A DNA stretch of 64,000 nt from an uncultured Gammaproteobacteria bacterium (GCA_964610465.1 CAZSWA010000003.1:6245-70244), one strand, 5' to 3'. Shown: positions 7,511-36,041, counted from the first letter of the stretch. Notes: generated by a model not told the origin, from the letters alone. Translations and numbers: made by a program.

Positions 7511-7533
7511 TATAATGAATAAATAGTAATAGT

Positions 7534-8316: not shown

Positions 8317-8354
8317 TACAGCAAATAAAACATCGGTAATTAACTTAAAATAAT

Positions 8355-18062: not shown

Positions 18063-19451
18063 ATGACAGACATAAATCCTAAGATATTTAAAGCCTATGA
18101 TATACGAGGCATCTATCCTCAAGACCTCAACGAAACAAATGTCAAAGAAATAACGAAAGCAATCTATGCTTTTTTTCTTAATAAATTAGGCACAAATAAT
18201 TTTACAGTTGTTTTAGCACGGGATATGCGTACTTCTTCTCCATCACTTCACAAAGAAGTTTTGGCTACCCTTATTGCGTGTGGAGCACATGTTGTAGATA
18301 TAGGAATAGTTTCAACTCCAACTTTTTATTTTGCGGTTTCTCATTATGGGTATGATACAGGTATTCAAATTACCGCATCACACAATCCTAAAGAATACAA
18401 TGGATTAAAATTTGTAGTCAAAGGGCCAACAGGTCTTATCAAAATTGGAAAGCCAACAGGTATGGAAGATGTGAAAACCCTGGCAGTAAAAGGTGTAACC
18501 ATTTCTTCTAAAAATCCGGGCAAAGTAACCAAAAAAGATACTCAAGCAATTCTTAAAGAAGAAGTCGATAACGCGCTTAAAATTGCAGGAAATCCAAAAA
18601 TCAGTAAATTCAAAATAGTCGCAGATCCTGCGAATGCAATGGGTAGTCAATATGTTGAAGCACTATTTCAAAAAGTTCCAACAGATTTAGTAAAAATGAA
18701 TTTTGAATTGGATGGAACTTTTCCAGCTCATCAGGCAGACCCACTACAAGCTGAAACGCTGGTAGATTTGCAAAAAAGAGTAGTAAAAGAACATGCTGAT
18801 TTAGGACTTGCTCCTGATGGTGATGGGGACAGGTTATTTTTTATTGACGAAAAAGGTCAAATAATTCCTCCTTCTATCATTACTGCATTAGTAGCACGTG
18901 AATTACTCAAGACACATCCTGGAGAACGAGTATTATTTGATATTCGTTATATTTTTACACCGCAAAAAATTGTTGAAGAAAATGGTGGAGCAACAGGTAT
19001 TACAAGAGTAGGTCATGCCTTCATCTCTGAAGAAATGAATAAAAATGGAGGAATCTTTGCAGGAGAATCTTCCTCTCATGCCTTTTTTAGAGAAACTGGG
19101 AATGCAGAATCTCAACTTCCAATGATTATCTTTGTACTTGCCGTTATGACACGGGAGAATAAAAAACTTTCAGAAATTGTTGAGGAATTAAGACGTTCTT
19201 ATGAATCAGGAGAAATTAATTTTAAAGTTACCAATGCACCGAATATCCTTGCAAAACTGAAAGAGAAATATAAAGACGGGAAGCTTAATGATATGGATGG
19301 AATCGCAATATCATATAAAACTTGGCGATTTAGTGTCCGTACATCAAATACTGAACCACTTTTGCGTCTCAATGTGGAAGCATATGACAAAGAAACTATG
19401 GAAAAGAAAAAAAATGAATTAGTGGCTTTCATCAATACTACAAAGAAATGA
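18063..19451 (+). CDS. phosphomannomutase/phosphoglucomutase (alpha-D-phosphohexomutase)
   Basis: Active-site 'TASHNPKEYNG', Mg-binding 'DGDGDR', sugar-binding 'GESSSH'. Confidence 0.85.
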   Translation: MTDINPKIFKAYDIRGIYPQDLNETNVKEITKAIYAFFLNKLGTNNFTVVLARDMRTSSPSLHKEVLATLIACGAHVVDIGIVSTPTFYFAVSHYGYDTGIQITASHNPKEYNGLKFVVKGPTGLIKIGKPTGMEDVKTLAVKGVTISSKNPGKVTKKDTQAILKEEVDNALKIAGNPKISKFKIVADPANAMGSQYVEALFQKVPTDLVKMNFELDGTFPAHQADPLQAETLVDLQKRVVKEHADLGLAPDGDGDRLFFIDEKGQIIPPSIITALVARELLKTHPGERVLFDIRYIFTPQKIVEENGGATGITRVGHAFISEEMNKNGGIFAGESSSHAFFRETGNAESQLPMIIFVLAVMTRENKKLSEIVEELRRSYESGEINFKVTNAPNILAKLKEKYKDGKLNDMDGIAISYKTWRFSVRTSNTEPLLRLNVEAYDKETMEKKKNELVAFINTTKK

Positions 19452-19903
19452 AAACTTTACCTAAATTTGATACATCAAAATTTACCATTACTCCTTATGT
19501 CAAACGGGTTGAAAAACCTTGGGGTTATGAGTTACATTGGGTACCGGAAGATGCTCCTTATATGGGTAAAGTCCTTCATATAAATGCAGGCAAAAGATTA
19601 TCTCTTCAAATTCATGACGCAAAATCTGAAAGCTGGTTTATGATGCATGGACGGGCAAAAGTATTGTGGGATAATGAGAAAGGAGAACTTATTGAAACAG
19701 AACTTCTCAACGGGCGAGGATATACAACACATGTAGGCCAACGTCATAGATTAATTGGAATTACAGATTGTGATATTCTTGAAGTATCAACTCCTGAAAA
19801 AGGCACCACATGGAGACTGGAAGATGACTATAAGAGACCTGATGAGACTGAGGAACTAAGAAAACAGCCCAATCGCGGTTGGGACAACGCTTCAAAAAAA
19901 TAA
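19448..19903 (+). CDS. cupin-type mannose-6-phosphate isomerase (type II PMI cupin domain)
   Basis: 'EKPWGYE', 'QIH', 'ESWFMMHG' cupin motifs. 4-nt overlap with the PMM gene. Confidence 0.6.
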   Translation: MKTLPKFDTSKFTITPYVKRVEKPWGYELHWVPEDAPYMGKVLHINAGKRLSLQIHDAKSESWFMMHGRAKVLWDNEKGELIETELLNGRGYTTHVGQRHRLIGITDCDILEVSTPEKGTTWRLEDDYKRPDETEELRKQPNRGWDNASKK

Positions 19904-19904
19904 C

Positions 19905-20957
19905 ATGTTAAATCTAAATGACATTGAACATCTGAATAAAATTGATCCCCAAAATACAAGAGCATCCAGTGATTTGATTGTCAAACAATGCAAAGCAGCA
20001 TGGGAACAAGTCAATAATCTTGAGATTAAAGAAGACAAGGAAAATATTACCAACATTGTTTTTTGTGGAATGGGGGCATCTATATATGGCGCACTTGTTC
20101 TTAAAGCTCTTATGGGACGCACGATGCCTTTACCTACTGAAATAGTAAGTGATTATTTTTTACCTGATTATGTAGATAACCACACATTGGTTGTCCTAAC
20201 AAGCTACTCAGGTACTACAGAAGAAGTACTTTCCTGTGCAAATGAAGCAAAAGAGAAAAATGCCAAGATGCTTGTTCTTACCAAAGGCGGACCGCTTGCA
20301 GAATTTGCAAAAACCAATAAAGTCCCAGCTTATATTTTTGACAAAAAACTCAATCCTGCTGGAGTACCACGATTGGGAAATGGATATACCATTTTGGGAC
20401 TTATTGGATTACTCAATAAAATAGGTATAATTGACTTGGAAGAGCATGAAATTACGAATGCGATTATTCGTCTTGAAGAAAAATTTGAAGAGATTAAAAA
20501 TCAAGCATTTAATGATTATACAATGTTTGAAAATAAAATCCCGATTGTCTTTACTGCTGAATATTTATCAGGCAACGGACAAATTCTAAGAAACCAGTTC
20601 AATGAAACAAGCAAAGCATTTTCTGCATATTATGTAATTCCTGATCTCAACCATCATTTAATGGAAGGACTCAAATTCCCAAAGAAATCCCCTCTTTATT
20701 TTCTTATCCTTAATTCTCCTAATTTTTCTCCAAAAATTAAGAAGAGAGTTGAGCTGACAATGGATGTAGTAAGACAAAATAAACACAAAATTTATGAATT
20801 TATGACTAGTGGACAAACCATATATGATGATTTTCTGGAAGCTCTTACCTATGGAAGCTTTCTTACCCTCTATCTTTCACTTTCCTACAACCAAAACCCT
20901 GCGATAAATCCTTGGGTAGATTATTTTAAAGAGAAATTAGCTCAAGGAGAGAAATAA
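19905..20957 (+). CDS. bifunctional phosphoglucose/phosphomannose isomerase (SIS domain, archaeal-type PGI/PMI)
   Basis: Two SIS-like halves ('FCGMGASIYGA', 'VLTSYSGTTEE'). Operon position immediately after PMM and cupin PMI. Confidence 0.6.
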   Translation: MLNLNDIEHLNKIDPQNTRASSDLIVKQCKAAWEQVNNLEIKEDKENITNIVFCGMGASIYGALVLKALMGRTMPLPTEIVSDYFLPDYVDNHTLVVLTSYSGTTEEVLSCANEAKEKNAKMLVLTKGGPLAEFAKTNKVPAYIFDKKLNPAGVPRLGNGYTILGLIGLLNKIGIIDLEEHEITNAIIRLEEKFEEIKNQAFNDYTMFENKIPIVFTAEYLSGNGQILRNQFNETSKAFSAYYVIPDLNHHLMEGLKFPKKSPLYFLILNSPNFSPKIKKRVELTMDVVRQNKHKIYEFMTSGQTIYDDFLEALTYGSFLTLYLSLSYNQNPAINPWVDYFKEKLAQGEK

Positions 20958-21371
20958 TTATTGTTTTGAAAGATATATTTTTATTTCCTTTATAAGGTCT
21001 GCTGGAGTTAATTGACTTTTGATAAGATATCCTGTTCCTAACGCAAGTGCTTCTTTTATTTCTACATCATCATTCAAATTAGTCAAAAACACTACGTTTT
21101 TATTTTTAATTGGCAGAAGTCCCTTATCGATGCTTTTTATCACATCGATACCGCTTAATTTTGGAAGTAAAATATCAAGAAGTATTAAATCCCAACCGCC
21201 TTGTTTGATTTTATCGAAGGCTTCTTCTCCATCAGTTGCACTATCTACATTATATCCTTCACCTTTGAGGGCCTCAAGATAAATATCACGCAGTAATTGA
21301 TCGTCTTCTACTACAAGTATTTTTGCTGAGTTCATTGATATAATCCTAGCATTATTATAATAAATAATCAA
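20958..21371 (-). CDS. stand-alone CheY-like response regulator receiver domain
   Basis: 'KILVVEDD', 'DLILLDILLP', conserved K. Probable true start at the internal 'MNSAKI'. Confidence 0.7.
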   Translation of the reverse strand: MIIYYNNARIISMNSAKILVVEDDQLLRDIYLEALKGEGYNVDSATDGEEAFDKIKQGGWDLILLDILLPKLSGIDVIKSIDKGLLPIKNKNVVFLTNLNDDVEIKEALALGTGYLIKSQLTPADLIKEIKIYLSKQ

Positions 21372-21415
21372 CCTAATTTCTAAGAATTTTTTCTGCTATA
21401 ATTATTATTATTTAA

Positions 21416-23446
21416 ATGGTGAATCAACTTCAAACTTATAAAAAAGTGTTTTATTCATGTATCCTTTTTCTGTTTTTCTCCTCTGTTTTTTTTCTTTATT
21501 TACATAATATTACACAAGATATATATAGTGGTGATATTGGAGATTTAGTAACTGCTTCCTATGTCTTTGGAGTACCTCATCCTCCTGGATATCCTCTCTT
21601 TACATTTTTGGGTTTTCTTTTTTCTCATATACCATTTTCTTTTCCTGTTGTATCACGCGTTGCTCTCATCTCATTCTTATCATCGTGGCTTGGTCTCATC
21701 GTTTTGTATAAATTTGCGAAGAAAGTAAGTAATGATATATTTATTTCTCTTCTTGCGACTTCCATTCTTGCATTTTCTTATCTCTATTGGCTACATGCTG
21801 AAGTACCAGAAGCATTTGGATTGAATAATTTTTTTGTAATAGCACTCTTCTATATATCTTATCTTTTTTATAAAGAAAAGAAAGTGTGGCAATTTTATCT
21901 CCTCTGTTTTTGTATGGGATTGTCTCTTACTCATCATCAAACTATTTTGTTTATTTTCCCGGGTTTGTTTTTGCTTCTTTTAAAAAACCTAAAATATGTT
22001 TTTAAGAAGAAAAAAAGGATATTGCTTGCTTTCCTTAGTTTTATTGTAGGATTTTTCCCTTATCTCTATGTTCTCATCGCTGCATCACATAATCCAATTA
22101 TTAACTGGGATAATGCTTATAATTTTCAAAATCTAATTCATTTAATATTAAGAAAAGATTATGGTTTTGCGCCAGCAATTGTAAATGAAGTGCCCTTTGC
22201 GGTCAAAATAATCCAGGTAAAAAGTTATTTTGAGTCGCTTATCATATTTTACTCATATCAAGTACTGTTCTTAGCACTACTTGGGGTTATCAAACTGATA
22301 AAAATTGATAGATTATTATTTGTCAGTCTTTTCATATCTTTCCTGTTTTCTGGACCTGCATATATATTTTATGGCGCAAATATTACTACAGAAGCTGCTG
22401 GTATGGGCATAATTGAACGGTTCTATCTAATATCAGCAATTATCCTCATGTTTTTCGTAATATACGGGCTTGTTTTTGTGAAAGAGTTGTTAAATCACAT
22501 ATTATCAAAAAAAATATATACTTTTATTTTATTATCTTATTTTCTTATTATTCCATTCTTTCTTGTAAAATATAATTTTGAAAAAACCAACCTTTCCCAA
22601 TCACATATTGGTAATAATTTAGCAATAGATATTTTGTCATCTCTCCCTAAAAATGCAGTTATATTCGTGTCAGGAGATACGACATCGTTTAATATTTGGT
22701 ATGTCCATTATGTATTAGGTTTCAGACCTGATGTAAATATTATTAACCCGCCAGGTGTTGGAGGAAATATTTATTTTGATAATCAAATTAACCGCTATCA
22801 CAAACTACATCCTTCAATAAAGCTTACAAACCTTGTTGCTCAAACACTTGAAGATATACGAAAAAGACATAGTGTGTATACTACATATGAAATCTCTTCT
22901 ATTCCCAAACATACAATTCTTCTTCCAAAAGGCTTAATATACGAAATGACATATGATAATGCTATGCCTACTAAACAAGAGTATATTAGAAGTGTTGAAC
23001 CTGTCCTTAATACAATACACCGAGTACGTAGTCAGACATTACTACCATATGATGATAACTTGATTGCTTCTGAAATACCTATGATTTATTCAAATGCATT
23101 AGTAAGAGTTGGAGATTTTTTATTTTCCTATTATCATGATTCAGCAACTCCTGAGCATTATTATAGAAGAGCATTATGGTTTGATGATAAAAATCCTGCT
23201 GCATACGCAGGACTTTCACTTAGCCAATATAAAGCCTACAATGATTGCCCAAACTCTATTGAGAACATGAATTCTGCAATCGATATTTATCCTATATGGA
23301 AAACGTACTATCTTCAACTTTATCTACTCTATAAGAGATGTAACACTTCTCAAAAGATCGTAAATAAGTATAAAGAAAGATACTATTCACTATTTAAAAT
23401 TTCTATAGATACTGACCTTACAAATAGTACAAAAAGAAAGATATAA
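21416..23446 (+). CDS. DUF2723 (TMEM260-like) GT-C membrane protein, putative protein O-mannosyltransferase, C-terminal TPR-like region
   Basis: 'SGDIGDLVTASYVFGVPHPPGYPLF' is the DUF2723 signature. About 11 TM helices. Confidence 0.6.
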   Translation: MVNQLQTYKKVFYSCILFLFFSSVFFLYLHNITQDIYSGDIGDLVTASYVFGVPHPPGYPLFTFLGFLFSHIPFSFPVVSRVALISFLSSWLGLIVLYKFAKKVSNDIFISLLATSILAFSYLYWLHAEVPEAFGLNNFFVIALFYISYLFYKEKKVWQFYLLCFCMGLSLTHHQTILFIFPGLFLLLLKNLKYVFKKKKRILLAFLSFIVGFFPYLYVLIAASHNPIINWDNAYNFQNLIHLILRKDYGFAPAIVNEVPFAVKIIQVKSYFESLIIFYSYQVLFLALLGVIKLIKIDRLLFVSLFISFLFSGPAYIFYGANITTEAAGMGIIERFYLISAIILMFFVIYGLVFVKELLNHILSKKIYTFILLSYFLIIPFFLVKYNFEKTNLSQSHIGNNLAIDILSSLPKNAVIFVSGDTTSFNIWYVHYVLGFRPDVNIINPPGVGGNIYFDNQINRYHKLHPSIKLTNLVAQTLEDIRKRHSVYTTYEISSIPKHTILLPKGLIYEMTYDNAMPTKQEYIRSVEPVLNTIHRVRSQTLLPYDDNLIASEIPMIYSNALVRVGDFLFSYYHDSATPEHYYRRALWFDDKNPAAYAGLSLSQYKAYNDCPNSIENMNSAIDIYPIWKTYYLQLYLLYKRCNTSQKIVNKYKERYYSLFKISIDTDLTNSTKRKI

Positions 23447-23454
23447 TTTTCTTC

Positions 23455-24600
23455 ATGAAACTTGTTTTTTTCACTTATAGCACACTTGAGTATGGAGGCG
23501 GTGTAGCAAGATATTTTATAGATATTGCTTCTCAACTCAAAAAACAACACCGTTCTTTAGATATTACAATTGTTACATTTCATGAATCGTTACTTAAAAA
23601 AATACTATTTGTCTACTCGATATATTTTACAAAAAAAATTGATACAGTCCTTTTTAAAGAGAGAGAAGAATTTGATGAAAAACTTAATAACATTCACTAT
23701 ATAAAAGTGAAAAAACTATCAGAACTTCATAAGTATCTTCAACAGGCAAATAGAATATATACAACAAATAATCTGCTAGAGTTATTAATCCTCAATACAC
23801 TTTCTTATAAATATCTTCTTCCCCAATTTATAATTGGTTTTCATATCCCTATGTATTATCCCATTAGTTCATCTTTCCAAAATAAAATTCATAATAGAAT
23901 ATATAAATCAGTTTTTTATTATAAACTATTATCGAAAGCTGAAAAGCTTCATGTAATAAACATTCATGATGAAAAAATTCTATTGACACATTTTCCTAAA
24001 AATAAAATCTATAAAATATACAATCCTTTTAATTCCCTAGAATTTAATACATTAAAAGAAAAGCTTTCTAAGAGTAGGAATCAGAAAATTAATATCCTCT
24101 GGATAGGACGATTGACAGAACAAAAGGGAGTTTCCGATTTACTTTCTCTTATAGTGAAAATTAACTCTTCCAAATATAAAAATAAACTAACTTGGAACAT
24201 TGTAGGTGAAGGTGAATTACGTTCTCAAATCATATTACTCCAAAAGGACTTTACTAATGTACGTTATTTAGGATATATATCTCATAATCAATTAGCAAGT
24301 ATTTATACAAAAAATGACATATTTATTTGTACAAGTCATTGGGAAAGTTTCCCTTATACACTTTTAGAAGCACAAAGTTTCAATTTACCTGTTATTTCCT
24401 ATAATATAGATGGGTGTAATGATATAATAGAGAACGGAATAAATGGCTATCTTGTAAATACGCTTACTGAATTTGAGAAAAGAATTTTAGAGTTTAGTAA
24501 AAATAATACCTTTAAGAATAAAGATATACGAGGTTACATTAAAAAAAAGTTTGAATATAAAGAGCAACTTAAAAGCTTATATAAGTTATTACACGATTAA
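23455..24600 (+). CDS. glycosyltransferase family 4 (GT-B, retaining)
   Basis: 'WIGRLTEQKG' and the 'ESFPYTLLEAQSFNLPVIS' EX7E-type motif. Confidence 0.75.
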   Translation: MKLVFFTYSTLEYGGGVARYFIDIASQLKKQHRSLDITIVTFHESLLKKILFVYSIYFTKKIDTVLFKEREEFDEKLNNIHYIKVKKLSELHKYLQQANRIYTTNNLLELLILNTLSYKYLLPQFIIGFHIPMYYPISSSFQNKIHNRIYKSVFYYKLLSKAEKLHVINIHDEKILLTHFPKNKIYKIYNPFNSLEFNTLKEKLSKSRNQKINILWIGRLTEQKGVSDLLSLIVKINSSKYKNKLTWNIVGEGELRSQIILLQKDFTNVRYLGYISHNQLASIYTKNDIFICTSHWESFPYTLLEAQSFNLPVISYNIDGCNDIIENGINGYLVNTLTEFEKRILEFSKNNTFKNKDIRGYIKKKFEYKEQLKSLYKLLHD

Positions 24601-24602
24601 CT

Positions 24603-25244
24603 ATGACAAACTATTATGATACTACTTATTTTAAATGGCAAAAAAAAGCAGGCGAATATGGCGCAAATCAAGATTTATGGATGTATAAAGATTATGTAAA
24701 ACCTTCTGATACTGTTCTGGATTTTGGTTGTGGCGGCGGCTACATGCTCAAAAAATTACATTGTAAAAATAAATACGGGATAGATATTAATCCAGTTGCA
24801 AGAAAGTTAGCAAAAGAAAAAGATATCCATGTATTTCAAAGTATTAAACAGCTTCCTAAAAATGTAAAATTTGATGTTATCATTTCTCACCATACCCTTG
24901 AGCATGTCACTGACCCCGCAAATATCTTAAAACAGTTGCGTATTCGTCTTAAGAAAAACGGTACTATTATATGTGTAGTTCCTATTGACGATTGGAGAAC
25001 TCAAAAAAAATATAATGCGGAAGATATAAATCAACATCTCTATACCTGGACTTCTCAACTTCTAGGAAATCTATTTGTAACTTGTGGATATAAAATCAAT
25101 AGCATTAATATACTTTCTTTCATGTGGCTTCCATTAAGCAGATATTATTATCGCTATATACCAAAACCTTTGTATTATTTTATGAGCAGGATTTGGAGTG
25201 AAGTTATATTATCCCGCCAGATTAGAATAGTTGCTCAAATATAA
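24603..25244 (+). CDS. class I SAM-dependent methyltransferase
   Basis: 'VLDFGCGGGYM' motif I. Confidence 0.7.
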   Translation: MTNYYDTTYFKWQKKAGEYGANQDLWMYKDYVKPSDTVLDFGCGGGYMLKKLHCKNKYGIDINPVARKLAKEKDIHVFQSIKQLPKNVKFDVIISHHTLEHVTDPANILKQLRIRLKKNGTIICVVPIDDWRTQKKYNAEDINQHLYTWTSQLLGNLFVTCGYKINSINILSFMWLPLSRYYYRYIPKPLYYFMSRIWSEVILSRQIRIVAQI

Positions 25245-25253
25245 AACTACGAC

Positions 25254-25961
25254 ATGCTAAAACTAAGATTGTTTTTTCATCCTCACTTTGTAATCAAATA
25301 TTATCTTTATAAGGATTTGAAAGCTATTACTAGCAACTATTCATTCAAGGGAAGAATCTTGGATATTGGATGCGGGAATAAACCGTATCAAGACTTATTT
25401 AAACCCGCTATTTATAAAGGAATTGATTTTAAAAAATTTTCAAGTAATTCAGAATTTAGTATCAATAAGCCTGACTATTACTTTCGCGCTCCCTATCTCT
25501 CAACTTTTAAATTACCATTTGTTTCCACTTATTTTGATTCAGTTGTTTCTTTTCAGGTACTTGAACATCATCCAGAAGTAGTTACTTTTATACGCGAAGC
25601 AGTAAGAGTAACAAAAAAGCACGGATTAATCATTATAAGCTTCCCTTTTATTTGGGGATTGCATGAAGAACCAAATGATTATCAACGACTTACTCATTAT
25701 AGTATCATTAGACAATTCAAAAAAAATAAATGTAAGATGATTAAAATAAAGACTCAAGGCTCTATTGCTTCAACAAATATGATGCTTCTCATGGATTATC
25801 TAATTGAACTATCTCATAAAGGGAAAATACATTATATTATTGCTTTATTGCTATACCCATTCTTTTTAGTTGCAAGTTATTTCTCTTTGGCAGTTGATAC
25901 GATATGCAAGTCAAATAAAGTATTTTTGAATTACATAGTAGTAGCACAAAAACTCGAGTAA
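25254..25961 (+). CDS. class I SAM-dependent methyltransferase with C-terminal TM helix
   Basis: 'ILDIGCGNKPY' motif I; hydrophobic tail. Confidence 0.65.
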   Translation: MLKLRLFFHPHFVIKYYLYKDLKAITSNYSFKGRILDIGCGNKPYQDLFKPAIYKGIDFKKFSSNSEFSINKPDYYFRAPYLSTFKLPFVSTYFDSVVSFQVLEHHPEVVTFIREAVRVTKKHGLIIISFPFIWGLHEEPNDYQRLTHYSIIRQFKKNKCKMIKIKTQGSIASTNMMLLMDYLIELSHKGKIHYIIALLLYPFFLVASYFSLAVDTICKSNKVFLNYIVVAQKLE

Positions 25962-25985
25962 TAAAGCTGGCTGATACTACAAGTA

Positions 25986-26990
25986 TTAAACCATTTCTTC
26001 CGCAAAAGTATAGGCCTCTTGAAGTGGAAATTGCTTAATATAATTTATTCGTATTTTCCCTTTTGTATTTATCTTACCGGGTATTGAAAAAAATTCATGT
26101 AATAATCCGGCTGCGTATGAAAAATGAATTAGTGGAAATAATAATGGCATACATAAAACCAAAATTATTTTTTTATATTTGATAGCTGCCTTTACTGAAG
26201 TCGCTATTCCCAATACCAAATACAAAAAGAGGGGTGTTAAATACCAAAAAGGATGAATAATAATAAGACTAAAAATATAAAGGATAAATGCAATCGGGCT
26301 CATCAAGAGAAAATCTTGAGGAATAAATTCTTTTTTTATTTGCTTCATCCGACCGCTTCCATAATGACTAAATTGCTTAATGAGTTGATACACAGTACCC
26401 CTATGATAACGATAGATAAACATACTCTGGTTGTACTCTAATTCATAACCTTTTGTCTTAAGTCTTCGGAGGAGCTCTGTTTCTTCATTTGGCACGATTG
26501 TTTCATCAAATCCTCCCACTTTTAGTACTGCAGTCTTTCGTAATGCAAGATTTGCTCCAATAAGCTGGTATTCATTGGCTTTTGTGACTTTTGTTTTTTG
26601 CCTGCTATAGCGAAAACGCATTCTCATGGCACCAAAATAAGTTTCAAGAGTATAGCCAATAAGTTGGCTCACAAAATTGCCGTCCTTGTAGCTAAAAAGG
26701 CTTGGGCCGCCAACAGCCGCAATATTGGGATTGGTAAAGGCTTTAGCGATAAGTTTAAACGCCTTTGGATTGACTTGTGAATCGTTATCTAAAAGGTAGA
26801 GTATCTTTCCTTTTGAATTTTTTATACCGATATTTCGCTGCTTGGCGATATGTCGTCCTTCTATAATAAGAATCTCAATGAGCTGTTTTGGATAATCTAC
26901 TCTTCGTAAAGACTCTAAAACTACTTGTGGATTGGTATCAGGAAGAATAGGAATATTTACAGATATTCTGGGCAAGTAACTTTTCTGCAC
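25986..26990 (-). CDS. glycosyltransferase family 2 (GT-A) with C-terminal TM helices, same strand and immediately downstream of pilin genes
   Basis: 'ISVNIPILPDTN', 'LLDNDS' DxD. C-terminal hydrophobic segments. Confidence 0.7.
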   Translation of the reverse strand: MQKSYLPRISVNIPILPDTNPQVVLESLRRVDYPKQLIEILIIEGRHIAKQRNIGIKNSKGKILYLLDNDSQVNPKAFKLIAKAFTNPNIAAVGGPSLFSYKDGNFVSQLIGYTLETYFGAMRMRFRYSRQKTKVTKANEYQLIGANLALRKTAVLKVGGFDETIVPNEETELLRRLKTKGYELEYNQSMFIYRYHRGTVYQLIKQFSHYGSGRMKQIKKEFIPQDFLLMSPIAFILYIFSLIIIHPFWYLTPLFLYLVLGIATSVKAAIKYKKIILVLCMPLLFPLIHFSYAAGLLHEFFSIPGKINTKGKIRINYIKQFPLQEAYTFAEEMV

Positions 26991-27051
26991 ATACTAATAA
27001 TAAACTCAAATCAAGAAAAAAAGCAAGAAGAATTTCAAGAAAAACTTAGAG

Positions 27052-27540
27052 CTATCGAGTAACGTTGATCGTAGAACCCAATTCTGCAGCTGGAGCTGAA
27101 ACGGTAAGTCTGTTACTCCCACCTGCACCTGTAATGGCTTGAATGGTATATCCTGTTGTCCATGTGGTACCAGTACATCCTGATGATTGAACAGGTTGTG
27201 CTCCACCCGCTGTTAACGGGTCAACTGGAAGTGCTGCAATATACTGGGGAACTACTGCAGTACAGAATGTATTAAACGCAGTTGCAGCAATAGTTTGGGC
27301 TGTGGTGGTAATCCCTGGAGGCAACGTGCCTTTGTTGTCTGCCATATATTGATTGGTAGCATTCAGGATTGCATTGACATCTGCGCTTCTTTTAGTATTG
27401 TTTGATTGAGAAAACTGTCGCGCCGGGTTAATAGCAATAAGAGTGATTGCGAGTAAGATTGCAAGGATTCCGATGACAACCAAAAGCTCGATAAGAGTAA
27501 ACCCTTTTCCCTGTCTTTTGATAAGCAGTTGTTTATTCAT
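27052..27540 (-). CDS. type IV major pilin (prepilin leader MNKQLLIKRQGKG | FTLIELLVV, Glu5), copy 1
   Basis: Canonical class III signal peptide. Thr/Gly-rich C-terminal region. Confidence 0.85.
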   Translation of the reverse strand: MNKQLLIKRQGKGFTLIELLVVIGILAILLAITLIAINPARQFSQSNNTKRSADVNAILNATNQYMADNKGTLPPGITTTAQTIAATAFNTFCTAVVPQYIAALPVDPLTAGGAQPVQSSGCTGTTWTTGYTIQAITGAGGSNRLTVSAPAAELGSTINVTR

Positions 27541-28212
27541 AATCTATATTAAGATTTACATAAACTCTACCGTTTGTCAAGATATCAGTTTTGTATCTTA
27601 CAGATTTCATACCAGCCACTTGATTTCTTTATATAGTACAAAAAAAAGAATATTCTTGTTTAATTCTGTTTTAAGTTTTATCTTGTTACTGTAATCGTAG
27701 AACCCAATTCTGCAGCTGGAGCTGAAACGGTAAGTCTGTTACTCCCTGCAATTTGTTGAATCATATATCCTGTTGTCCATGTGGTACCAGTACATCCTGA
27801 TGATTGAACAGGTTGTGCTCCACCCGCTGTTAACGGGTCAACTGGAAGTGCTGCAATATACTGGGGAACTACTGCAGTACAGAATGTATTAAACGCAGTT
27901 GCAGCAATAGTTTGGGCTGTGGTGGTAATCCCTGGAGGCAACGTGCCTTTGTTGTCTGCCATATATTGATTGGTAGCATTCAGGATTGCATTGACATCTG
28001 CGCTTCTTTTAGTATTGTTTGATTGAGAAAACTGTCGCGCCGGGTTAATAGCAATAAGAGTGATTGCGAGTAAGATTGCAAGGATTCCGATGACAACCAA
28101 AAGCTCGATAAGAGTAAACCCTTTTCCCTGTCTTTTGATAAGCAGTTGTTTATTCATAATCTATATTAAGATTTACATAAACTCTACCGTTTGTCAAGAT
28201 ATCAGTTTTGCG
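27068..28212. repeat. tandem direct duplication (about 520-530 bp unit, period about 620 bp) containing a pilin gene plus its 55-bp upstream region
   Basis: 27068-27595 and 27692-28212 are near-identical. They differ only near the pilin 3' end (a 9-nt indel plus substitutions). Confidence 0.9.
27678..28157 (-). CDS. type IV major pilin, copy 2 (identical to copy 1 over about the first 130 residues)
   Basis: Same leader and core as copy 1. The C-terminus reads 'YMIQQIAGSNRLTVS...TITVTR' versus 'YTIQAITGAGGSNRLTVS...TINVTR'. Confidence 0.85.
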   Translation of the reverse strand: MNKQLLIKRQGKGFTLIELLVVIGILAILLAITLIAINPARQFSQSNNTKRSADVNAILNATNQYMADNKGTLPPGITTTAQTIAATAFNTFCTAVVPQYIAALPVDPLTAGGAQPVQSSGCTGTTWTTGYMIQQIAGSNRLTVSAPAAELGSTITVTR

Positions 28213-28246
28213 TGCTCAGTTTACATTCGTGACACAGGTCACTGGA

Positions 28247-29482
28247 TTATAAATTGAGTTTGACAAGAAGAATATCAACTCTATAACCTGTTACACTTGT
28301 ATCTTCATGTACAATAGTATCTGTAGTAAATTTACCTATTATTGAGAGTATTTCATCCCGTATATCCTGAGGAACTTTTTTAGAAAAATTTATTACCGTT
28401 TTTAAAGATGTAGTGGAAGACGAATCTTGTACTGTTACTTTTTTATATCCACTCTGTGTTAAACTCTCTTTGAGTATATTTACTTGTTTTGCCGTGTTGC
28501 TCGTATTGATAATTGTAACTGTTAGAGATTTTTCCTTAAGCAAGGCTGAACTACTTGATATAAGAGCAGCTGAAGAACTTGCTTCAGGCGTAACAATAGG
28601 TGGAAGTAGTGTTGGAGATGACACTACCACAGACGGTGTAGTAACAGCAGGTTTTGAAGGTGACTGATTGGATATAATATAGACTGCAATAAGAACCCCG
28701 ATAAGAATGACAAAAATTCCAAGAAGAATAAAAACGCGTAAATTACCGGAGGATTTTTTCGCAGCAGGAGGAGATAGAGATATTGTGTCAGTATTTGCGG
28801 CTTGTTCTGCCTGGGCCTGGATTTCGATATTGGTTTTTGAGGCAAGAAGATTTTCCTGTTTAAAACTGTCAAGTTTTTTAAAAACCATATTTGCTGTCTC
28901 TTTATTTAAATCACTTGTTAATTTTATTTTGGGTTCATAAAGAAATGCCGGAATTACCAAATCTATATGAAAGTCATATTTTTCAAAAACTGATTTAATC
29001 GCTTGATAAAAATTACTATTGGCAGCAAGTACTCTTATTCCGTTTTGTATAGGATATCTCTTACTTATAATATCTTCAAAAGGTACCGCATCAAGATAAT
29101 TTTTAATTGATGTTTCTAAGTCTTCCTGAGGAGCTGTTGGGGAGGCCGATTGATTTGCAGAAGTCCCAGTAGTTTGTGCAGATTTTTGTGGTTTTTTATT
29201 GGCCTGGTCTTTTGCGGAAGATTTAGAAAATTCTTTTATAAAAAGCGTGTCATTGGAAAGTATGATAGCCAAATTACGTGAAGTAATTTTGTTGGTATCC
29301 AAAAATTGCTTTATCCTGGTATCAAGAATTTCTTTATTGATAATATCAGTGTGCAGTATTGCATCCGTTTCAAATGTAAATTGATAAACAGATGGCAAGT
29401 CCGGAGCGTACAGATTTAATTTATCTCTTTGTAAATAAAGTATTCCTGATTGACCTTTTGTCATTAGTAAATTACCCTCCAT
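28247..29482 (-). CDS. pilus-operon membrane protein: cytoplasmic N-domain, single TM, S/T/P-rich linker, C-terminal LytR_C-like domain (PilM/PilN-like candidate)
   Basis: Domain layout is read from the sequence. Overlaps the upstream minor pilin gene. Confidence 0.4.
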   Translation of the reverse strand: MEGNLLMTKGQSGILYLQRDKLNLYAPDLPSVYQFTFETDAILHTDIINKEILDTRIKQFLDTNKITSRNLAIILSNDTLFIKEFSKSSAKDQANKKPQKSAQTTGTSANQSASPTAPQEDLETSIKNYLDAVPFEDIISKRYPIQNGIRVLAANSNFYQAIKSVFEKYDFHIDLVIPAFLYEPKIKLTSDLNKETANMVFKKLDSFKQENLLASKTNIEIQAQAEQAANTDTISLSPPAAKKSSGNLRVFILLGIFVILIGVLIAVYIISNQSPSKPAVTTPSVVVSSPTLLPPIVTPEASSSAALISSSSALLKEKSLTVTIINTSNTAKQVNILKESLTQSGYKKVTVQDSSSTTSLKTVINFSKKVPQDIRDEILSIIGKFTTDTIVHEDTSVTGYRVDILLVKLNL

Positions 29483-29880
29483 GTTTGTATTGATAGTACA
29501 TTATTCACCCAATTCACTGTTGCTTGTACCTTTCTTACAAAATTTCCTTCCTGACCTTGCGATAGTATGATATAAGGATTTCCTCCACTTACCTGCACAG
29601 TCGCTGATGGAGTCGCAATCGATCCAGATGGACTTCCTACATATAATGTTTCACCTTTATAAGTAGGATCCCTCAACAATCTTAGTATAGCATTTTCTAC
29701 ACCACTTTCTGCAACCATATATGCAATTTCACCTTCCTGAATTTTTGTACTGGAGTTTGTGTTTAAAACTATAATAATTACACTCGCAGAAATAATCGTT
29801 ACTGCAACCACTACGAAAAGTAAAAGCGTAATTAATGCTTGCCCTTTTTGTAATTTTTTTATCTGTAAGTTTTTTTTCAT
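29464..29880 (-). CDS. PilX-like minor pilin (prepilin-like N-terminus without Glu5)
   Basis: 'KLQKGQALITLLLFVVVAVTII' is a PilX_N-type helix. Confidence 0.55.
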   Translation of the reverse strand: MKKNLQIKKLQKGQALITLLLFVVVAVTIISASVIIIVLNTNSSTKIQEGEIAYMVAESGVENAILRLLRDPTYKGETLYVGSPSGSIATPSATVQVSGGNPYIILSQGQEGNFVRKVQATVNWVNNVLSIQTWRVIY

Positions 29881-30398
29881 TGTAAACCAACTGTTGTACT
29901 AAAATTCCGTGTTTCAGGTTTTCCTGTAGTACGACTAGTTTTGCTAGTGACAGTAAATGTGATTTTAACTGTATCAGTATTGCTTCCTCCATTGCCTATT
30001 CGTAAGAAATTGAGATTTGATACTGTAGTGTCATAGCTATTTAAATTATCTGTGCCATTTGCATCTGTAATCTGGAAATTACCATTACCGTCAGTTGCAT
30101 AGGTATAGTTTATCGCGTTGGAAGTAATTTGCAATGTAGCACCTTGCTGACCAGGACTTGCAGGGACATTGATAGTATCCGCTGAATTTATATCATATAG
30201 AAGTCTTGATAGAATAAATTTCCCGTCCTGTTCAACATCTGATGAAGATTGAGATTCAAGTCCCACATCTAAAACAGTAGAAAAAATACTTGAAAGGCTT
30301 GCAATAAGCAAGGTCAATACTCCCATATAGATAAGTAACTCAATAAGAGTATATCCTTTCGCATAAGATTGTTTTCTATATTTTGCAAAAATTTTCAT
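29877..30398 (-). CDS. minor (pseudo)pilin with prepilin cleavage/methylation motif
   Basis: 'KGYTLIELLIYMGVLTLL'. Confidence 0.7.
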   Translation of the reverse strand: MKIFAKYRKQSYAKGYTLIELLIYMGVLTLLIASLSSIFSTVLDVGLESQSSSDVEQDGKFILSRLLYDINSADTINVPASPGQQGATLQITSNAINYTYATDGNGNFQITDANGTDNLNSYDTTVSNLNFLRIGNGGSNTDTVKITFTVTSKTSRTTGKPETRNFSTTVGLQ

Positions 30399-32434
30399 GG
30401 TGAATGATTTACACTAACATCATAAAGTACAGGCGTGAGATTTGAATCATTGGTCGTAAAATATGCTTTATATCGCATACACCATCCAGGATTGGTATAA
30501 CTTGGATTGTAATTACCAAAAGGTATTGCAGCAGAAATCGATGCAGCAACAGGAGTAAAGTAGGAAGCAGGATTTCCATTTGGTCCTACATAAGTATATG
30601 TCGCATTATTGCAATTACCGTTTACTGCCTGGGATGCAGCAACCTGTATCTGAATTGTAGTATTGGAAGGTTGATTGATGGTGGCAACTAATCTATTGAA
30701 TGTCATCTGGTGAGTTGGAGGTTGAGTAAGCGCAAAATTTCTGGATTCAAATGTTCCGCTGCTTGAATAGGTACCTCCTGACCCTCCTTCAACTATTTGC
30801 ACTTCTGCGCTTGCATTATCAGTAAGTATATACGAAAAATGATCACCATCTGTTTCTATTACAGGAGAGATTGCATAAATAGTATTTACACCAGGAATTG
30901 TAATTCCGCCGCATCGGACTGGCACACTGGCATTACTTACGTCAATTACCTGATAGACCTGACCACTTGAACCGCCGATTGCTACTCTATTTCCTGGAAT
31001 TGCAACTACTGCTTTTGGACTCATATTTTGTACTGTAGTATAATTTCCGACAATTGTATTGTTAGAAAGATCAATAATAAAAAGGTCAGGCTCTGTTGAT
31101 AAATAATTGGTAACTACATAGGCATACGTTGCAGCCTGGGAAACATACACATCATTTGCTCCGAGACTATTCCCAAGATTAATATCAGCAATATCTGTAA
31201 GACGAGTTGGATCTAAGGCGTTGATAATTTGCAACTGTTTGGTGGTACTTGATGTTGCGATATACACAGTAGTTCCTACGACAAAGACTTTGTTACCAGT
31301 TCCTGCCAAATTAAATACACCAAGTTGTGTTTGGCTGCTTGAACCTTGTATTGATTTTAGATCAAATGTGTAAAGCTTACTTCCAATTGTGACATACCCT
31401 ACATTGCCGCCATAGGAAGTATTATTGGCCACATATACACTGGTTCCTGTGCCACCTGGATCAAAATATCCTGCTTTTGTAAAATTTGGCGGATTTTGTA
31501 TATTAAGAATATCTACTGACGGACCTGGATTAGCTGCTGCAAGATATGCATATTGTGAATCAGCATAAAGTCCATAGGTTTTTATATTTTCTGTAGTATA
31601 AGACCCGTTATAGGAAATTACAGGAGGACTGGGATTAGGCGGGTCACTCACTACTGCGCTCTCCATAGGATTACCGGAAGAATTACCTCCTGTAGTTGAA
31701 TAAATCGTATTTTTATTTGCACCAACAAAGGTAGTAATAGCAGTAGCGATAGCGGAGCCTGGTAAATTATATGTTAAAGATGCGGTAGGTGTAGCGGGTT
31801 GACACCAATCACCATGTCCACCTGCACCAAGCTGTACCTGTCCATCATTAGGCGTTCCACTCGGAATAGTATTTACTACTGCCACTCCTGACAAAACATT
31901 TCCTGCATTAAAATCAGTAGTAGTTGTATCAGTGTCTGAAATATTATCCTGATGGGTAAGATATAAGGTAGAAGTAATAGAACTTGCATACGGCTGTGTC
32001 CATGAAATAGTAATAGCTATTTGTTTGGTTGAAGGATCAAGCGTCCCTGCAGGAGAAGCGACAATTGCGCCGGTTGATGCTCTATTTACATCACTAATAT
32101 CTATTCTTTGTGTCAAGCCATTTATAGTCTGTGTACCTGATACTAACATCCAGGCATTCCCGGAAGTTGTGGCATAGTATGTCCCATCAGTTGTGATGGC
32201 ATTCCAGTTATTATTGCGTATGCTTTTGATTGCTTCTTCACTTTCTTTAAGAAATTGTATTGCCTGGATTCGTTGTAATTCTTGTGGTTTTCCGCTGCGT
32301 GAAGCCACAACTCCTGTAAGAATCGCTGGGAATATGATTGCCGCAAGACCAATAGCAAGCAACACTTCTACAAGTGTTTGTCCCTTTTCCAAAAAGTTCT
32401 TATACTTTGTGTTAATTAACTTGAGTAATTGCAC
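30395..32434 (-). CDS. giant pseudopilin (679 aa), putative pilus tip or adhesin subunit
   Basis: 'EKGQTLVEVLLAIGLAAIIF' is a prepilin-type N-terminus with Glu5. The long Ser/Thr/Gly/Asn-rich extracellular region reads as beta-rich. Confidence 0.55.
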   Translation of the reverse strand: MQLLKLINTKYKNFLEKGQTLVEVLLAIGLAAIIFPAILTGVVASRSGKPQELQRIQAIQFLKESEEAIKSIRNNNWNAITTDGTYYATTSGNAWMLVSGTQTINGLTQRIDISDVNRASTGAIVASPAGTLDPSTKQIAITISWTQPYASSITSTLYLTHQDNISDTDTTTTDFNAGNVLSGVAVVNTIPSGTPNDGQVQLGAGGHGDWCQPATPTASLTYNLPGSAIATAITTFVGANKNTIYSTTGGNSSGNPMESAVVSDPPNPSPPVISYNGSYTTENIKTYGLYADSQYAYLAAANPGPSVDILNIQNPPNFTKAGYFDPGGTGTSVYVANNTSYGGNVGYVTIGSKLYTFDLKSIQGSSSQTQLGVFNLAGTGNKVFVVGTTVYIATSSTTKQLQIINALDPTRLTDIADINLGNSLGANDVYVSQAATYAYVVTNYLSTEPDLFIIDLSNNTIVGNYTTVQNMSPKAVVAIPGNRVAIGGSSGQVYQVIDVSNASVPVRCGGITIPGVNTIYAISPVIETDGDHFSYILTDNASAEVQIVEGGSGGTYSSSGTFESRNFALTQPPTHQMTFNRLVATINQPSNTTIQIQVAASQAVNGNCNNATYTYVGPNGNPASYFTPVAASISAAIPFGNYNPSYTNPGWCMRYKAYFTTNDSNLTPVLYDVSVNHSP

Positions 32435-32909
32435 CTCTTCTGTTTATTGTTATAGTTTTTTGAACATTCGATTGCGTATCTTTAAGAATAACTGTGTTTG
32501 ATCCAACACTAAATCCTATGATTTCACCGCTTCCACTGGCAAAAATAACTGAAGAGTTAGGAAATGTAATACCAGTAAATTGCAATGTATCTGGCAAAGA
32601 AGCCGAAAAATTTGTCGTATCTGAAGATGAGTAACTTGCTCCATGAAACAGCACATAACTATTGGCACTAAAGTAGATTCCATAGCTATCCATTACTCCC
32701 CGGCCTTCTGTATCCCCTGTCATCGCTTTGATTTGCTGGTTTTTGATATCTGCAATAAGTGAATTAATCGTGGTAGATAGAGAACTATTGTGTTTAAATT
32801 CCAAAAGATTTACGGTAATAAGTAGGGCAAGCAAAGAAAAAATTGTCATCACGAGAAGCAATTCGATAAGTGTAAACCCTTGAAATTTCTGCTGAAAAGG
32901 ATATTTCAT
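32412..32909 (-). CDS. minor (pseudo)pilin with prepilin cleavage/methylation motif
   Basis: 'QGFTLIELLLVMTIFSLLALL'. Confidence 0.7.
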   Translation of the reverse strand: MKYPFQQKFQGFTLIELLLVMTIFSLLALLITVNLLEFKHNSSLSTTINSLIADIKNQQIKAMTGDTEGRGVMDSYGIYFSANSYVLFHGASYSSSDTTNFSASLPDTLQFTGITFPNSSVIFASGSGEIIGFSVGSNTVILKDTQSNVQKTITINRRGAITQVN

Positions 32910-33962
32910 TCATCGTCCTCCTACTTGACCAATCATACTGTAAATAGGAGCAATAATAGACATCATCATACCGCCAACCATAACTCCGACAAATACCAAC
33001 ATAAGAGGTTCCATTAATGCAGTTACTGTTTTTAATGAGTTTGATACTTGGTAATCCAGATATTCAGATGCATCAAGCATCGATTTATCAAGTGATCCGC
33101 TTCGTTCTCCTGCCTCTGTGATTTTTATGACAATACTTGGGATAACATTTTTTGAATATTTAAGACTCTCTGAAAGTTTTTTCCCATCAGCAACCGTATT
33201 CTTTGCATGCTTAATTGCTTTCTGAATATCTTTCTTAACTACTACTTCTTCTGTAAGTTCAAGCGCAGTAATAATCGGGATCCCCGCATTAAGAAGTAAA
33301 TATAAACTTCTCGTAAACCGGGTAAGATCTATATCCTTGGCAAGTTGCGAAACTACAGGTAACGAAATTAGGATGTATATAAACAACCTTTTGTTTTTCC
33401 TGTAGAGAAAAGCAATAATAGCTCCAATAACTCCAACCCCTATGATTACTTCAAGCGTATGAGTAAGCAATAAACTCGACAGAAATATCATGATTTTTGT
33501 AGGTAATGGAAGTGTTACATTTAAACGCGAGAAAACTGTTGAGATTTTCGGAACCACCACTACGAGAATAACTAGCATTACTGCGATAAATACAAAAAGA
33601 ATAAATACCGGATAGATAAGAGCTGATTTTATCTTATCTGCAAATTCCTGTTCTTTACGAATATTCACTTTAATGTCATTGAGGGTAACATCAAGCGTTC
33701 CTGCTTCTTCTGATGCTTTGATGATATTTATTGTTACCTTATCAAATACTCCTGGAAATTTTGAAAAGCTATAATATACATGTTGTCCTTGAGTTAAATC
33801 TTCTTTTAGTGTAGTAAGTATCTTTTTCATATTACCCTTTGAATCATCAAGAAGCGAATTTACTGTCTCAAGAATGGGAATTCCTGAGGTCAACATCGTA
33901 TGCATATTACTAACAAGAGTAATTTTATCATTTCCTGATAATGAAATATTTTGAGTTTTCAT
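32910..33962 (-). CDS. pilC: type IV pilus inner-membrane platform protein PilC / GspF family
   Basis: Two GspF-like repeats and three TM segments. Operon position next to pilB. Confidence 0.75.
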   Translation of the reverse strand: MKTQNISLSGNDKITLVSNMHTMLTSGIPILETVNSLLDDSKGNMKKILTTLKEDLTQGQHVYYSFSKFPGVFDKVTINIIKASEEAGTLDVTLNDIKVNIRKEQEFADKIKSALIYPVFILFVFIAVMLVILVVVVPKISTVFSRLNVTLPLPTKIMIFLSSLLLTHTLEVIIGVGVIGAIIAFLYRKNKRLFIYILISLPVVSQLAKDIDLTRFTRSLYLLLNAGIPIITALELTEEVVVKKDIQKAIKHAKNTVADGKKLSESLKYSKNVIPSIVIKITEAGERSGSLDKSMLDASEYLDYQVSNSLKTVTALMEPLMLVFVGVMVGGMMMSIIAPIYSMIGQVGGR

Positions 33963-35644: not shown

Positions 35645-35650
35645 GGGCAG

Positions 35651-36028
35651 TTATTGTAAATAATTGTCTTTATTTAAATTTTGCACTTTTTTCCATAATT
35701 TTTCAAAATCAAAAAAGCTTTTGTTGATATAGTCCCGTGCTCCCAGTTTTTTGGCTTTTTCTACATCTGATTGCTGACCAAGTGTAGAGAACACAAGAAC
35801 TGGTATCTTCTTCAATTCCGTACTTTCTGACAAATCTTTCAACACTCCAAAGCCGTCTTTTTTGGGCATAATAAGATCCAGAAGTATTACATCAGGTTTT
35901 ACTTCTTTAATCTTGGCTATGCCTTCTTCTCCATCGGCTGCCTCATACACTTCTACTTTTTGTTCCTTAAATTTCGATGCGTAAAACTGTCTGAAAAATT
36001 TATCGTCCTCTACTAATACTATACGCAT
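35651..36028 (-). CDS. CheY-like response regulator receiver (stand-alone)
   Basis: 'RIVLVEDD', 'DVILLDLIMP', 'KLGARDYI'. Confidence 0.75.
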   Translation of the reverse strand: MRIVLVEDDKFFRQFYASKFKEQKVEVYEAADGEEGIAKIKEVKPDVILLDLIMPKKDGFGVLKDLSESTELKKIPVLVFSTLGQQSDVEKAKKLGARDYINKSFFDFEKLWKKVQNLNKDNYLQ

Positions 36029-36041
36029 ATATGAAAATGAA

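Follow-up and report, generated by a model that had tools for sequence, protein, structure and literature searches.

The region considered here (20958-28157) belongs to a 64,000-nucleotide stretch of DNA, referred to below as the window, deposited under the title 'uncultured Gammaproteobacteria bacterium' (GCA_964610465.1 CAZSWA010000003.1:6245-70244). It encodes a DUF2723 glycosyltransferase of the GT-C type, a set of further sugar-related enzymes and two type IV prepilins, and was originally read from the sequence as a possible pilin O-glycosylation system. The genes were called from an open reading frame (ORF) listing and then checked by Pfam and NCBIfam hidden Markov model (HMM) scans, which confirmed all the predicted identities, namely DUF2723, GT4, two S-adenosylmethionine (SAM) methyltransferases, GT2, the pilins and the enzymes PMM, PMI and PGI.

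On the plus strand the GT-C gene (21416-23446; 676 amino acids, aa; PF11028, E 4.9e-21) is followed by a GT4 gene (23455-24600; PF00534, E 4.8e-28) and by the genes of two class I SAM methyltransferases, the first at 24603-25244 (PF13489, E 1.7e-19) and the second at 25254-25961 (PF08241, E 3e-10). The minus strand carries a membrane GT2 with a GTG start (25986-26990; PF13632, E 1e-19), prepilin copy 1 (27052-27540; 162 aa; PF07963) and the near-identical prepilin copy 2 (27678-28157; 159 aa), and the two sets of genes converge at 25961/25986. A receiver-only response regulator (20958-21371, minus strand; PF00072, E 2e-20), divergent from the GT-C gene, occupies the start of the region and was the one gene missing from the list originally given; its likely ATG start yields a protein of 125 aa, ending at 21335, and a gene of 125 aa was also called on an identical Logan contig. 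A receiver gene is found at the equivalent position beside the GT-C in the loci L002, L003, L008, L010, L088 and L089 of the comparison described below.

The closest named homologues of the GT-C come from Candidatus Roizmanbacteria and other Microgenomates (50-55% identity), and the G+C content of the window is low (29-42%). On these sequence grounds the host is a Microgenomates-group bacterium of the candidate phyla radiation (CPR), with Candidatus Roizmanbacteria nearest among the named relatives. Loci L008-L021 and others are also titled 'uncultured Gammaproteobacteria bacterium', yet their GT-C proteins are closest to those of Microgenomates and their pilus genes follow the order of named CPR loci; judged by sequence, the title of those loci looks like a placeholder or a wrong label.

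The TMEM260-family enzyme and its pilin neighbours

The PF11028 score of the GT-C, 75.7 bits against a curated cut-off of 24.2, places the protein firmly in the DUF2723 family; a sub-threshold PMT_2 match was obtained as well, and the precomputed family matches are PF11028 and PF28495 (TMEM260_2). Comparison by phmmer with the structure of human TMEM260 (9rql_A) gave E 1.5e-36, residues 21-445 aligning on 33-465, and a profile of 17 GT-C sequences matched TMEM260 (PDB 9rql) with E 2.8e-62. The protein has 11 hydrophobic segments, all before residue 384, followed by a soluble C-terminal part of about 290 aa, in which residues 550-640 of the profile match tetratricopeptide repeat (TPR) proteins; over the Rossmann-like part the TMEM260 alignment reaches only residue 445. 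By sequence the GT-C is a genuine homologue of human TMEM260, and from this homology its C-terminal part would be extracytoplasmic.

Mutagenesis and cryo-EM of TMEM260 have shown D52, H67, R264, Y267, R355 and D441 to be essential; the first five bind the donor, D52 and H67 form the sugar-recognition motif, and D441 is the catalytic base (bioRxiv 10.64898/2026.03.17.711096). The HMMER alignment brings D40, H55, R246, Y249, R335 and D421 of the GT-C, respectively, to these positions. All six are invariant across 17 CPR homologues (alignment A1) and are kept in 28-29 of 29 species-representative proteins of the close subfamily defined below, which are otherwise 26-55% identical. The enzyme would appear to be an active, polyprenyl-phosphate-sugar-dependent transferase that modifies extended stretches of peptide on the outer side of the membrane. 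It could be supposed instead that the homologue is catalytically dead and has a structural part in the CPR pilus machine or in its assembly, perhaps as a TPR scaffold, since many CPR locus arrangements lack obvious PilMNOPQ components and TPR proteins serve as pilus assembly factors in other bacteria; the retention of the six residues in such divergent proteins makes this very improbable.

The linkage of the enzyme to pilins was followed by a scan of the GTDB representatives (one genome per species) with the GT-C alignment, the best 80 loci being retained. Prepilins were flagged in called ORFs by the G-F/Y-T-L-x-E motif plus a hydrophobic stretch, and PilB and PilC by phmmer. The close subfamily (E < 1e-58) comprised 29 loci from Microgenomates and other CPR bacteria, and the distant DUF2723 set comprised 51 loci from Verrucomicrobiota, Gemmatimonadota, Elusimicrobia, Chloroflexota, Myxococcota and others. 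A prepilin gene lay within 150 bp of the GT-C gene in 23 of the 29 close loci and within 6 kb in 28, the only locus without one being a contig of 2.8 kb; in 20 of the 23 adjacent cases the pilin gene was directly upstream on the same strand. In the distant set the corresponding counts were 2/51 and 5/51, one of the five being a false positive. The difference between the sets is expressed by Fisher p values, uncorrected for phylogeny, of 1.7e-12 (150 bp) and 2e-15 (6 kb). The apparent pilin beside the verrucomicrobial DUF2723 gene of L042 was recognised as a false positive of the motif, the protein being really an EamA transporter.

There are at least four gene orders in which GT-C and pilin stay together. 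In the window and in L002-L004, L010, L088 and L089 it is the convergent, Roizman-type one. In the second order the GT-C stands at the end of a pilus operon composed of Hpt, response regulator, PilB, PilC, minor pilins and pilin (L005, Levybacteria contig); the third is PilB-PilT-PilC-pilin-GT-C-minor pilins (L024-L033; Gottesman-, Woese- and Paceibacteria-type loci), and the fourth is pilin-GT-C-PMT_2-like-PilD (prepilin peptidase)-pilins (L013). The association of the DUF2723 GT-C with pilin genes is far stronger than chance would give and spans several gene orders, and a pilin-linked glycosylation system of the kind originally predicted is well supported by this comparative context, with the GT-C as the conserved partner. 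A Roizmanbacteria paralogue of the GT-C (L051) has no pilin nearby, so that within the DUF2723 family the pilin link belongs to a single clade. The loci are phylogenetically related, and the adjacency could in principle be inherited synteny devoid of any functional link; this is hardly credible, however, when the pair persists in these different orders and in both orientations amid completely different flanks, and when L051 and the distant members of the family are without pilins.

Other arrangements of DUF2723 and GT-C genes were encountered in the same survey. Tandem arrays of two or three DUF2723 paralogues with no pilin nearby occur in L048, L052, L054, L064, L074 and L078, whose hosts belong to Elusimicrobia, Endomicrobiales, Pseudohongiellaceae and Bacteroidota. 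A gene for a GT-C membrane protein related to YfhO and PTPS lies in the window itself (2088-3779, minus strand), YfhO-like GT-C genes are convergent to the DUF2723 gene in two CPR loci (L025, 11850-14135; L034, 12000-14153), and an additional PMT_2-like GT-C stands among the pilin genes in L013 and L088; from these cases, several GT-C families cluster around CPR pilus loci.

Candidate acceptors and the accessory island

The leader of prepilin copy 1 is cleaved after G13. The two copies share a 300-nt stretch of 98% identity, and their proteins differ only near the C-terminus, in the last ~25 codons. The copies agree upstream as well, each following the same sequence, in which lies a promoter-like TTGACA region (27052-28240), and the spacer between them (27541-27677) contains, besides its promoter-like part, a weak AAGAATATTCTT + T8 hairpin after copy 2. 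A public assembly of this organism in Logan is interrupted at the margin of the pilin repeat, 107 bp upstream of GT2. L004 and L088 likewise have tandem pilins, in two or three copies.

Among relatives the pilin family is 60-80% identical (alignment A3), with C93 and C122 invariant and T80 nearly invariant in the segment 'LPxG-I-x-T-T-A-Q-T-I'. In the AlphaFold2 (AF2) model (pLDDT 75) helix alpha-1 spans residues 16-68, and T78-T80, which are residues 65-67 of the mature protein, fall in the loop 69-81, the predicted alpha-beta loop. In the Pa5196 pilin of Pseudomonas aeruginosa, Thr64 and Thr66 are arabinosylated (bioRxiv 10.1101/2020.04.19.049825). The nearness of these positions, which is suggestive only, makes T78-T80 the best candidate for the acceptor site on the modelled pilin. 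The Thr-rich strings quoted in the original prediction are present in the pilins, and Ser and Thr account for 25.5% of the mature pilin beyond residue 55, compared with ~10-12% for cytoplasmic enzymes. This richness was set aside as evidence of glycosylation, being non-discriminating and common to exported pilus proteins.

Another possible acceptor is encoded next to the pilins, a 411-aa single-transmembrane (TM) protein (28247-29482, minus strand) with a TM helix at residues 252-270 and, following it, a linker in which 18 of 30 residues are Ser, Thr or Pro (SPSKPAVTTPSVVVSSPTLLPPIVTPEASS). Such a stretch is of the extended, proline-containing kind that TMEM260 binds (bioRxiv 10.64898/2026.03.17.711096). 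It may be asked, then, whether the TMEM260-family enzyme acts on an exported protein of the pilus locus or envelope other than the major pilin, be it this protein, a minor pilin or an S-layer or wall component, its adjacency to pilins reflecting shared expression with the pilus machinery. The general Ser/Thr richness of exported pilus proteins and the glycosylation module retained without pilins in L006 are in keeping with such an acceptor. Orthologues of the 411-aa protein were, however, detected only in Roizman- and Levy-type loci (the Levybacteria phmmer match having a weak LytR_C match), whereas the prepilin adjoins the GT-C in 23 of the 29 subfamily loci, usually upstream on the same strand, as with proven pilin glycosyltransferases. 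A different acceptor is on balance considered unlikely.

The genes that separate the GT-C from the pilin form a variable island. In Roizman-type loci this interval holds from none to five genes: none in L010, a single GT2 of another subfamily than that of the window in L003, GT4, methyltransferase and GT2 in L002 and L009, the same with a second methyltransferase in the window and L004, and GT4, a DegT aminotransferase and three GT2 in L008. A GT4 is present in L002, L004, L009, L088 and L089 and absent from L003 and L010. The GT-C/pilin pair is the part of the cluster that relatives keep; the GT4, methyltransferase and GT2 genes constitute a variable accessory set and not the fixed, dedicated pathway first envisaged. 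The occurrence of the cluster beside unrelated genes was also looked at, and one case without pilins was found, L006 (JGI Ga0209726_10000004, 56397-78421). The macro-synteny of this locus is that of the window (UvrB-LexA-TP_methylase-enolase-PPDK-PGI-PMM-holA), the whole pilus block is missing, and a module of DUF2723 with GT2, two methyltransferases and GT2 lies between holA and a PhageMetallopep gene; from this synteny the module appears to move as a unit.

The GT4 has no TM segment and is soluble, which indicates a cytoplasmic enzyme; methyltransferase 1 is also soluble, and methyltransferase 2 has a single C-terminal TM segment (residues 192-210). The GT2 is modelled by AF2 (pLDDT 85) as a GT-A domain followed by four C-terminal helices. 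Its best Foldseek matches are BcsA, hyaluronan synthases (HAS) and PcManGT (6yv7), the last being a minimal cellulose-synthase-like mannosyltransferase; the top 50 PDB matches contain BcsA, HAS, PcManGT, TarP and GalNAc-T, and the profile matches contain TarS, PglI, heparosan synthase and PcManGT. GtrB and dolichol-phosphate-mannose synthase (DPMS) were not among the matches listed in the top 50 Foldseek PDB results or the profile search. Its sequence and model suggest that the GT2 is a membrane transferase whose acceptor is lipid-linked or polymeric.

Sharing the strand of pilin copy 1, the GT2 gene begins 61 nt past the stop codon of that pilin. The T-rich spacer (26991-27051) shows no terminator-like hairpin in a terminator scan and folds no better than its shuffles (-9 kcal/mol, z = +1.5), in agreement with the original prediction that no convincing terminator separates the two genes. 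In each of the four related loci examined besides the window (L002, L004, L088 and L089) a GT2 orthologue (47-60% identity) follows a pilin gene at a distance of 24-85 nt and in the same orientation; a homologue of 34% identity (P0173) sits among unrelated genes of purine biosynthesis. Co-transcription of the GT2 with the pilin is probable. A strong terminator at this point had been proposed as a refutation; in known pilin-accessory cassettes, however, the pilin gene is itself followed by an attenuating terminator (PMC11841053), so that the presence or absence of a hairpin is not diagnostic and a terminator would not refute the link.

Steps that depend on SAM or nucleotide sugars must be cytoplasmic, and hence the only contribution that the island could make to a pilin glycan is to a lipid-linked donor before flipping. 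The GT-C alone may, conversely, be concerned with the pilus, and the GT4, the two methyltransferases and the GT2 may be an unrelated surface polysaccharide or glycolipid pathway wedged in this lineage. The resemblance of the GT2 to transferases of polymers and lipid-linked glycans (BcsA, HAS, PcManGT, TarS and PglI), the single, non-elongated sugar attached by TMEM260-type enzymes and the lack of a glycosyltransferase or methyltransferase gene next to the GT-C in most subfamily loci would all suit such a pathway. Sets of GT2 and methyltransferase genes nevertheless occur beside the GT-C in the differently arranged L005, L006, L008, L009 and L023 and in the Chloroflexota loci L070 and L082. Moreover, the island of Roizman-type loci is always placed exactly between GT-C and pilin, with the GT2 orthologue close behind the pilin in each of the four related loci besides the window. 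An unrelated island is consequently regarded as rather improbable.

The GT-C gene is preceded on the plus strand by PMM/PGM (18063-19451; four domains found by HMM), a 151-aa cupin (19448-19903) matching the C-terminal domain of mannose-6-phosphate isomerase (E 1.9e-8), and an SIS-type bifunctional PGI/PMI (19905-20957; HMM). These were originally read as a mannose-activation trio; their identities stand, and their membership of the conserved module does not. Only the window and L088 have all three next to the module, L006 having them without the cupin; beside the module they are absent in L002-L005 and L089, and the flanking genes of other loci are of quite another kind, such as those of an arginine decarboxylase and a histidine kinase. 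PMM and PGI belong to a housekeeping block, holA-PMM-PGI, near PPDK-enolase, and neither a GDP-mannose pyrophosphorylase nor a DPM1-type synthase is encoded in the 64-kb window. The trio was rejected as a dedicated donor pathway, because it is only an occasional neighbour and the pyrophosphorylase is missing from the window. It is best read as general sugar-phosphate metabolism, which may supply sugar to the glycosylation pathway without being dedicated to it.

Proposed glycosylation of pilin and known systems

Taken together, the region is interpreted, with a probability of roughly 0.6, as the part of the type IV pilus superlocus that serves glycosylation, in which an enzyme of the TMEM260 family would be the core of an O-glycosylation system for pilin resembling that of TfpW. 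The connection of glycosylation with the pilins is retained from the original prediction; the emphasis shifts from the GT2 and the mannose genes to the GT-C, since throughout Microgenomates it is the GT-C that is conserved alongside the pilin. In the mechanism proposed, the donor would be a sugar carried on polyprenyl phosphate, most economically guessed to be mannose or another hexose; the GT-C would take up this sugar on the outer side of the cytoplasmic membrane and transfer it to Ser or Thr of the membrane-anchored pilin before assembly. The TPR/Rossmann-like lobe would hold the extended pilin segment, with T78-T80 in the alpha-beta loop as the candidate site. The GT4, the two SAM methyltransferases, one of them membrane-anchored, and the membrane GT2 might build or decorate the lipid-linked donor on the cytoplasmic side, which could result in a methylated mannose glycan on the pilin, and variation of the island between lineages would then diversify the pilus glycan between species. 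We infer the acceptor, the sugar and the role of the island from this combination of homology and gene context.

A number of points weigh against this interpretation. TMEM260 adds a single mannose that is not elongated, which leaves no obvious role for a cytoplasmic GT4, GT2 and methyltransferases, and the building of a lipid-linked donor by the island would sit uneasily with this chemistry. By the fold and profile matches listed, the GT2 does not look GtrB- or DPMS-like, and genes for a flippase, a priming phosphoglycosyltransferase and a GDP-mannose pyrophosphorylase are missing from the window. The window also has ~3.6 kb and four island genes between the GT-C and the nearest pilin gene, which is convergent with it on the other strand. 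In L006 a GT-C of 41% identity is accompanied by GT2-methyltransferase-methyltransferase-GT2 with no pilin within 10 kb, and the Fisher statistics ignore the shared ancestry of the loci. As regards the acceptor, all exported pilus proteins are comparably rich in Ser and Thr (16-24%), the extended Ser/Thr/Pro stretch of the 411-aa protein is denser than that of the pilin and more typical of an acceptor, and CPR pilin glycosylation consists of predicted sites only in the paper on Saccharibacteria (PMC11623550).

By architecture and gene position the closest functional analogue of the GT-C is TfpW (AAM52060.1) of P. aeruginosa group IV, an arabinosyltransferase and proven pilin GT-C required for pilin glycosylation, with 646 aa, 11 TM segments, a C-terminal TPR and a gene immediately downstream of pilA (bioRxiv 10.1101/2020.04.19.049825). 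The two proteins are alike in size (646 and 676 aa), in the 11 TM segments and C-terminal TPR, and in an acidic motif of the first outer loop. Their genes are alike in the position directly downstream of the major pilin, found here in most relatives (23/29 within 150 bp, 20 with a co-directional upstream pilin), and in the occasional clustering of sugar-biosynthesis genes; the target Thr residues 64 and 66 of the mature pilin compare with the candidates 65-67. The systems differ in that the present enzyme demonstrably belongs to the TMEM260/PF11028 family, TfpW being compared by architecture and gene position alone, and in that TfpW uses decaprenyl-phosphate-D-arabinofuranose and also polymerises it, no DprE-type genes being present here. 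The host here is, in addition, a CPR bacterium, and in the lineage of the window the GT-C is convergent with the pilin, with the island between them. On the question whether TfpW itself belongs to PF11028, the 'pilin + 620-aa' pairs of the gammaproteobacterial L077 were rejected as GT-C candidates, being really TPR-sulfotransferase or unannotated proteins, and a plasmid tblastn returned only one irrelevant Parabacteroides DUF2723 fragment.

Human TMEM260 (PDB 9rql/9rqm/9rqn) resides in the endoplasmic reticulum, uses dolichol-phosphate-mannose as donor and acts on the IPT domains of plexins, cMET and RON. Homology to it extends over the GT-C core and the start of the lumenal domain, and the six essential residues, the 11 TM segments and the TPR-containing C-terminal part are common to both; the bacterial gene differs in being accompanied by variable glycosyltransferase and methyltransferase partners.

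A membrane GT2 encoded together with a GT-C also recalls the three-component systems (GtrB-type GT2, GtrA flippase and GT-C; CsbB/YfhO; Ppm1/Pmt), which probably differ from the present region in the type of their GT2 and have no counterpart of the extra GT4 and methyltransferases; no small GtrA-like or other flippase gene was found in 20958-28157 or in the rest of the window. A likeness is also seen in Chloroflexota, where relatives of the GT2 of the window accompany DUF2723 genes (L082, 9902-13393, and L070, 461-3544; HMM E 1.8e-11 and 5e-16) and where, in L082, an LPG_synthase_TM protein between DUF2723 and GT2 completes a triad. This protein is a possible flippase, in which case the arrangement would be a pilin-free, Gtr-like three-component one.

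TfpO/PilO and PglL, which transfer oligosaccharides en bloc to pilin, are of the O-antigen-ligase type. They share with the present system a pilin-linked membrane transferase, and the island could build a lipid-linked oligosaccharide; they have been described as unrelated to TfpW, and no protein of the region has a Pfam match to the O-antigen-ligase (Wzy_C) domain.

Wider locus and biological meaning

The remainder of the type IV pilus superlocus (28247-36440, minus strand; ORFs and HMM) continues beyond the 411-aa protein with minor pilins and a 679-aa protein (29464-32909), PilC (32910-33962), PilB (33959-35644), a response regulator (35651-36028) and Hpt (36042-36440), an order shared with L003, L005 and L010. 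Two single-domain response regulators (20958-21371 and 35651-36028) and the Hpt thus flank the combined pilus and glycosylation genes, and this bracket is also found in L003, L005 and L010; in the window no histidine kinase adjoins the superlocus. Elsewhere in the window a possible cluster for the synthesis and turnover of beta-glucan (4012-10358, plus strand) comprises an unannotated 672-aa protein, a cellulose-synthase-like processive GT2 (6002-7510), a HlyD-like protein (7534-8316) and a protein of the GH81 endo-beta-1,3-glucanase type (8355-10358). Three histidine-phosphatase genes (His_Phos_1, PGAM-like) lie at 40914-41540, 58771-59415 and 59417-60055, the last two in tandem.

In a full-text search of the literature available 'DUF2723' turned up only in the paper on the discovery of human TMEM260, which goes no further than to mention 'distant homologs in bacteria', and no function assigned to the family in bacteria was found. 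Papers tying TMEM260 homologues or O-mannosyltransferases to pilins, or reporting an enzyme that glycosylates the pilins of CPR bacteria, did not come up in this search. No surface organelle of CPR/Patescibacteria is better conserved than the type IV pilus. Cultivated Saccharibacteria use it to bind their hosts and to move, and ideas on its glycosylation have so far been guesswork (PMC11623550).

It is tempting to speculate, and at somewhat less than even odds, that the TMEM260/DUF2723 enzymes of CPR bacteria are dedicated pilin O-mannosyl (hexosyl) transferases, ancestral and nearly universal in Microgenomates pilus loci, and that the glycosyltransferase and methyltransferase islands diversify the glycan for host recognition or phage evasion. 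The pili of CPR bacteria are accordingly predicted to be O-glycosylated, with a decoration specific to the species. If this is true, the CPR TMEM260/DUF2723 family would represent a prokaryotic lineage related to the metazoan TMEM260 pathway. As DUF2723 is widespread among bacteria, the conserved pairing of pilin and GT-C would offer the first concrete and testable substrate for a bacterial member of the family, and the bacterial GT-C may become a tractable prokaryotic model for the human enzyme, which is a disease enzyme (SHDRA syndrome).

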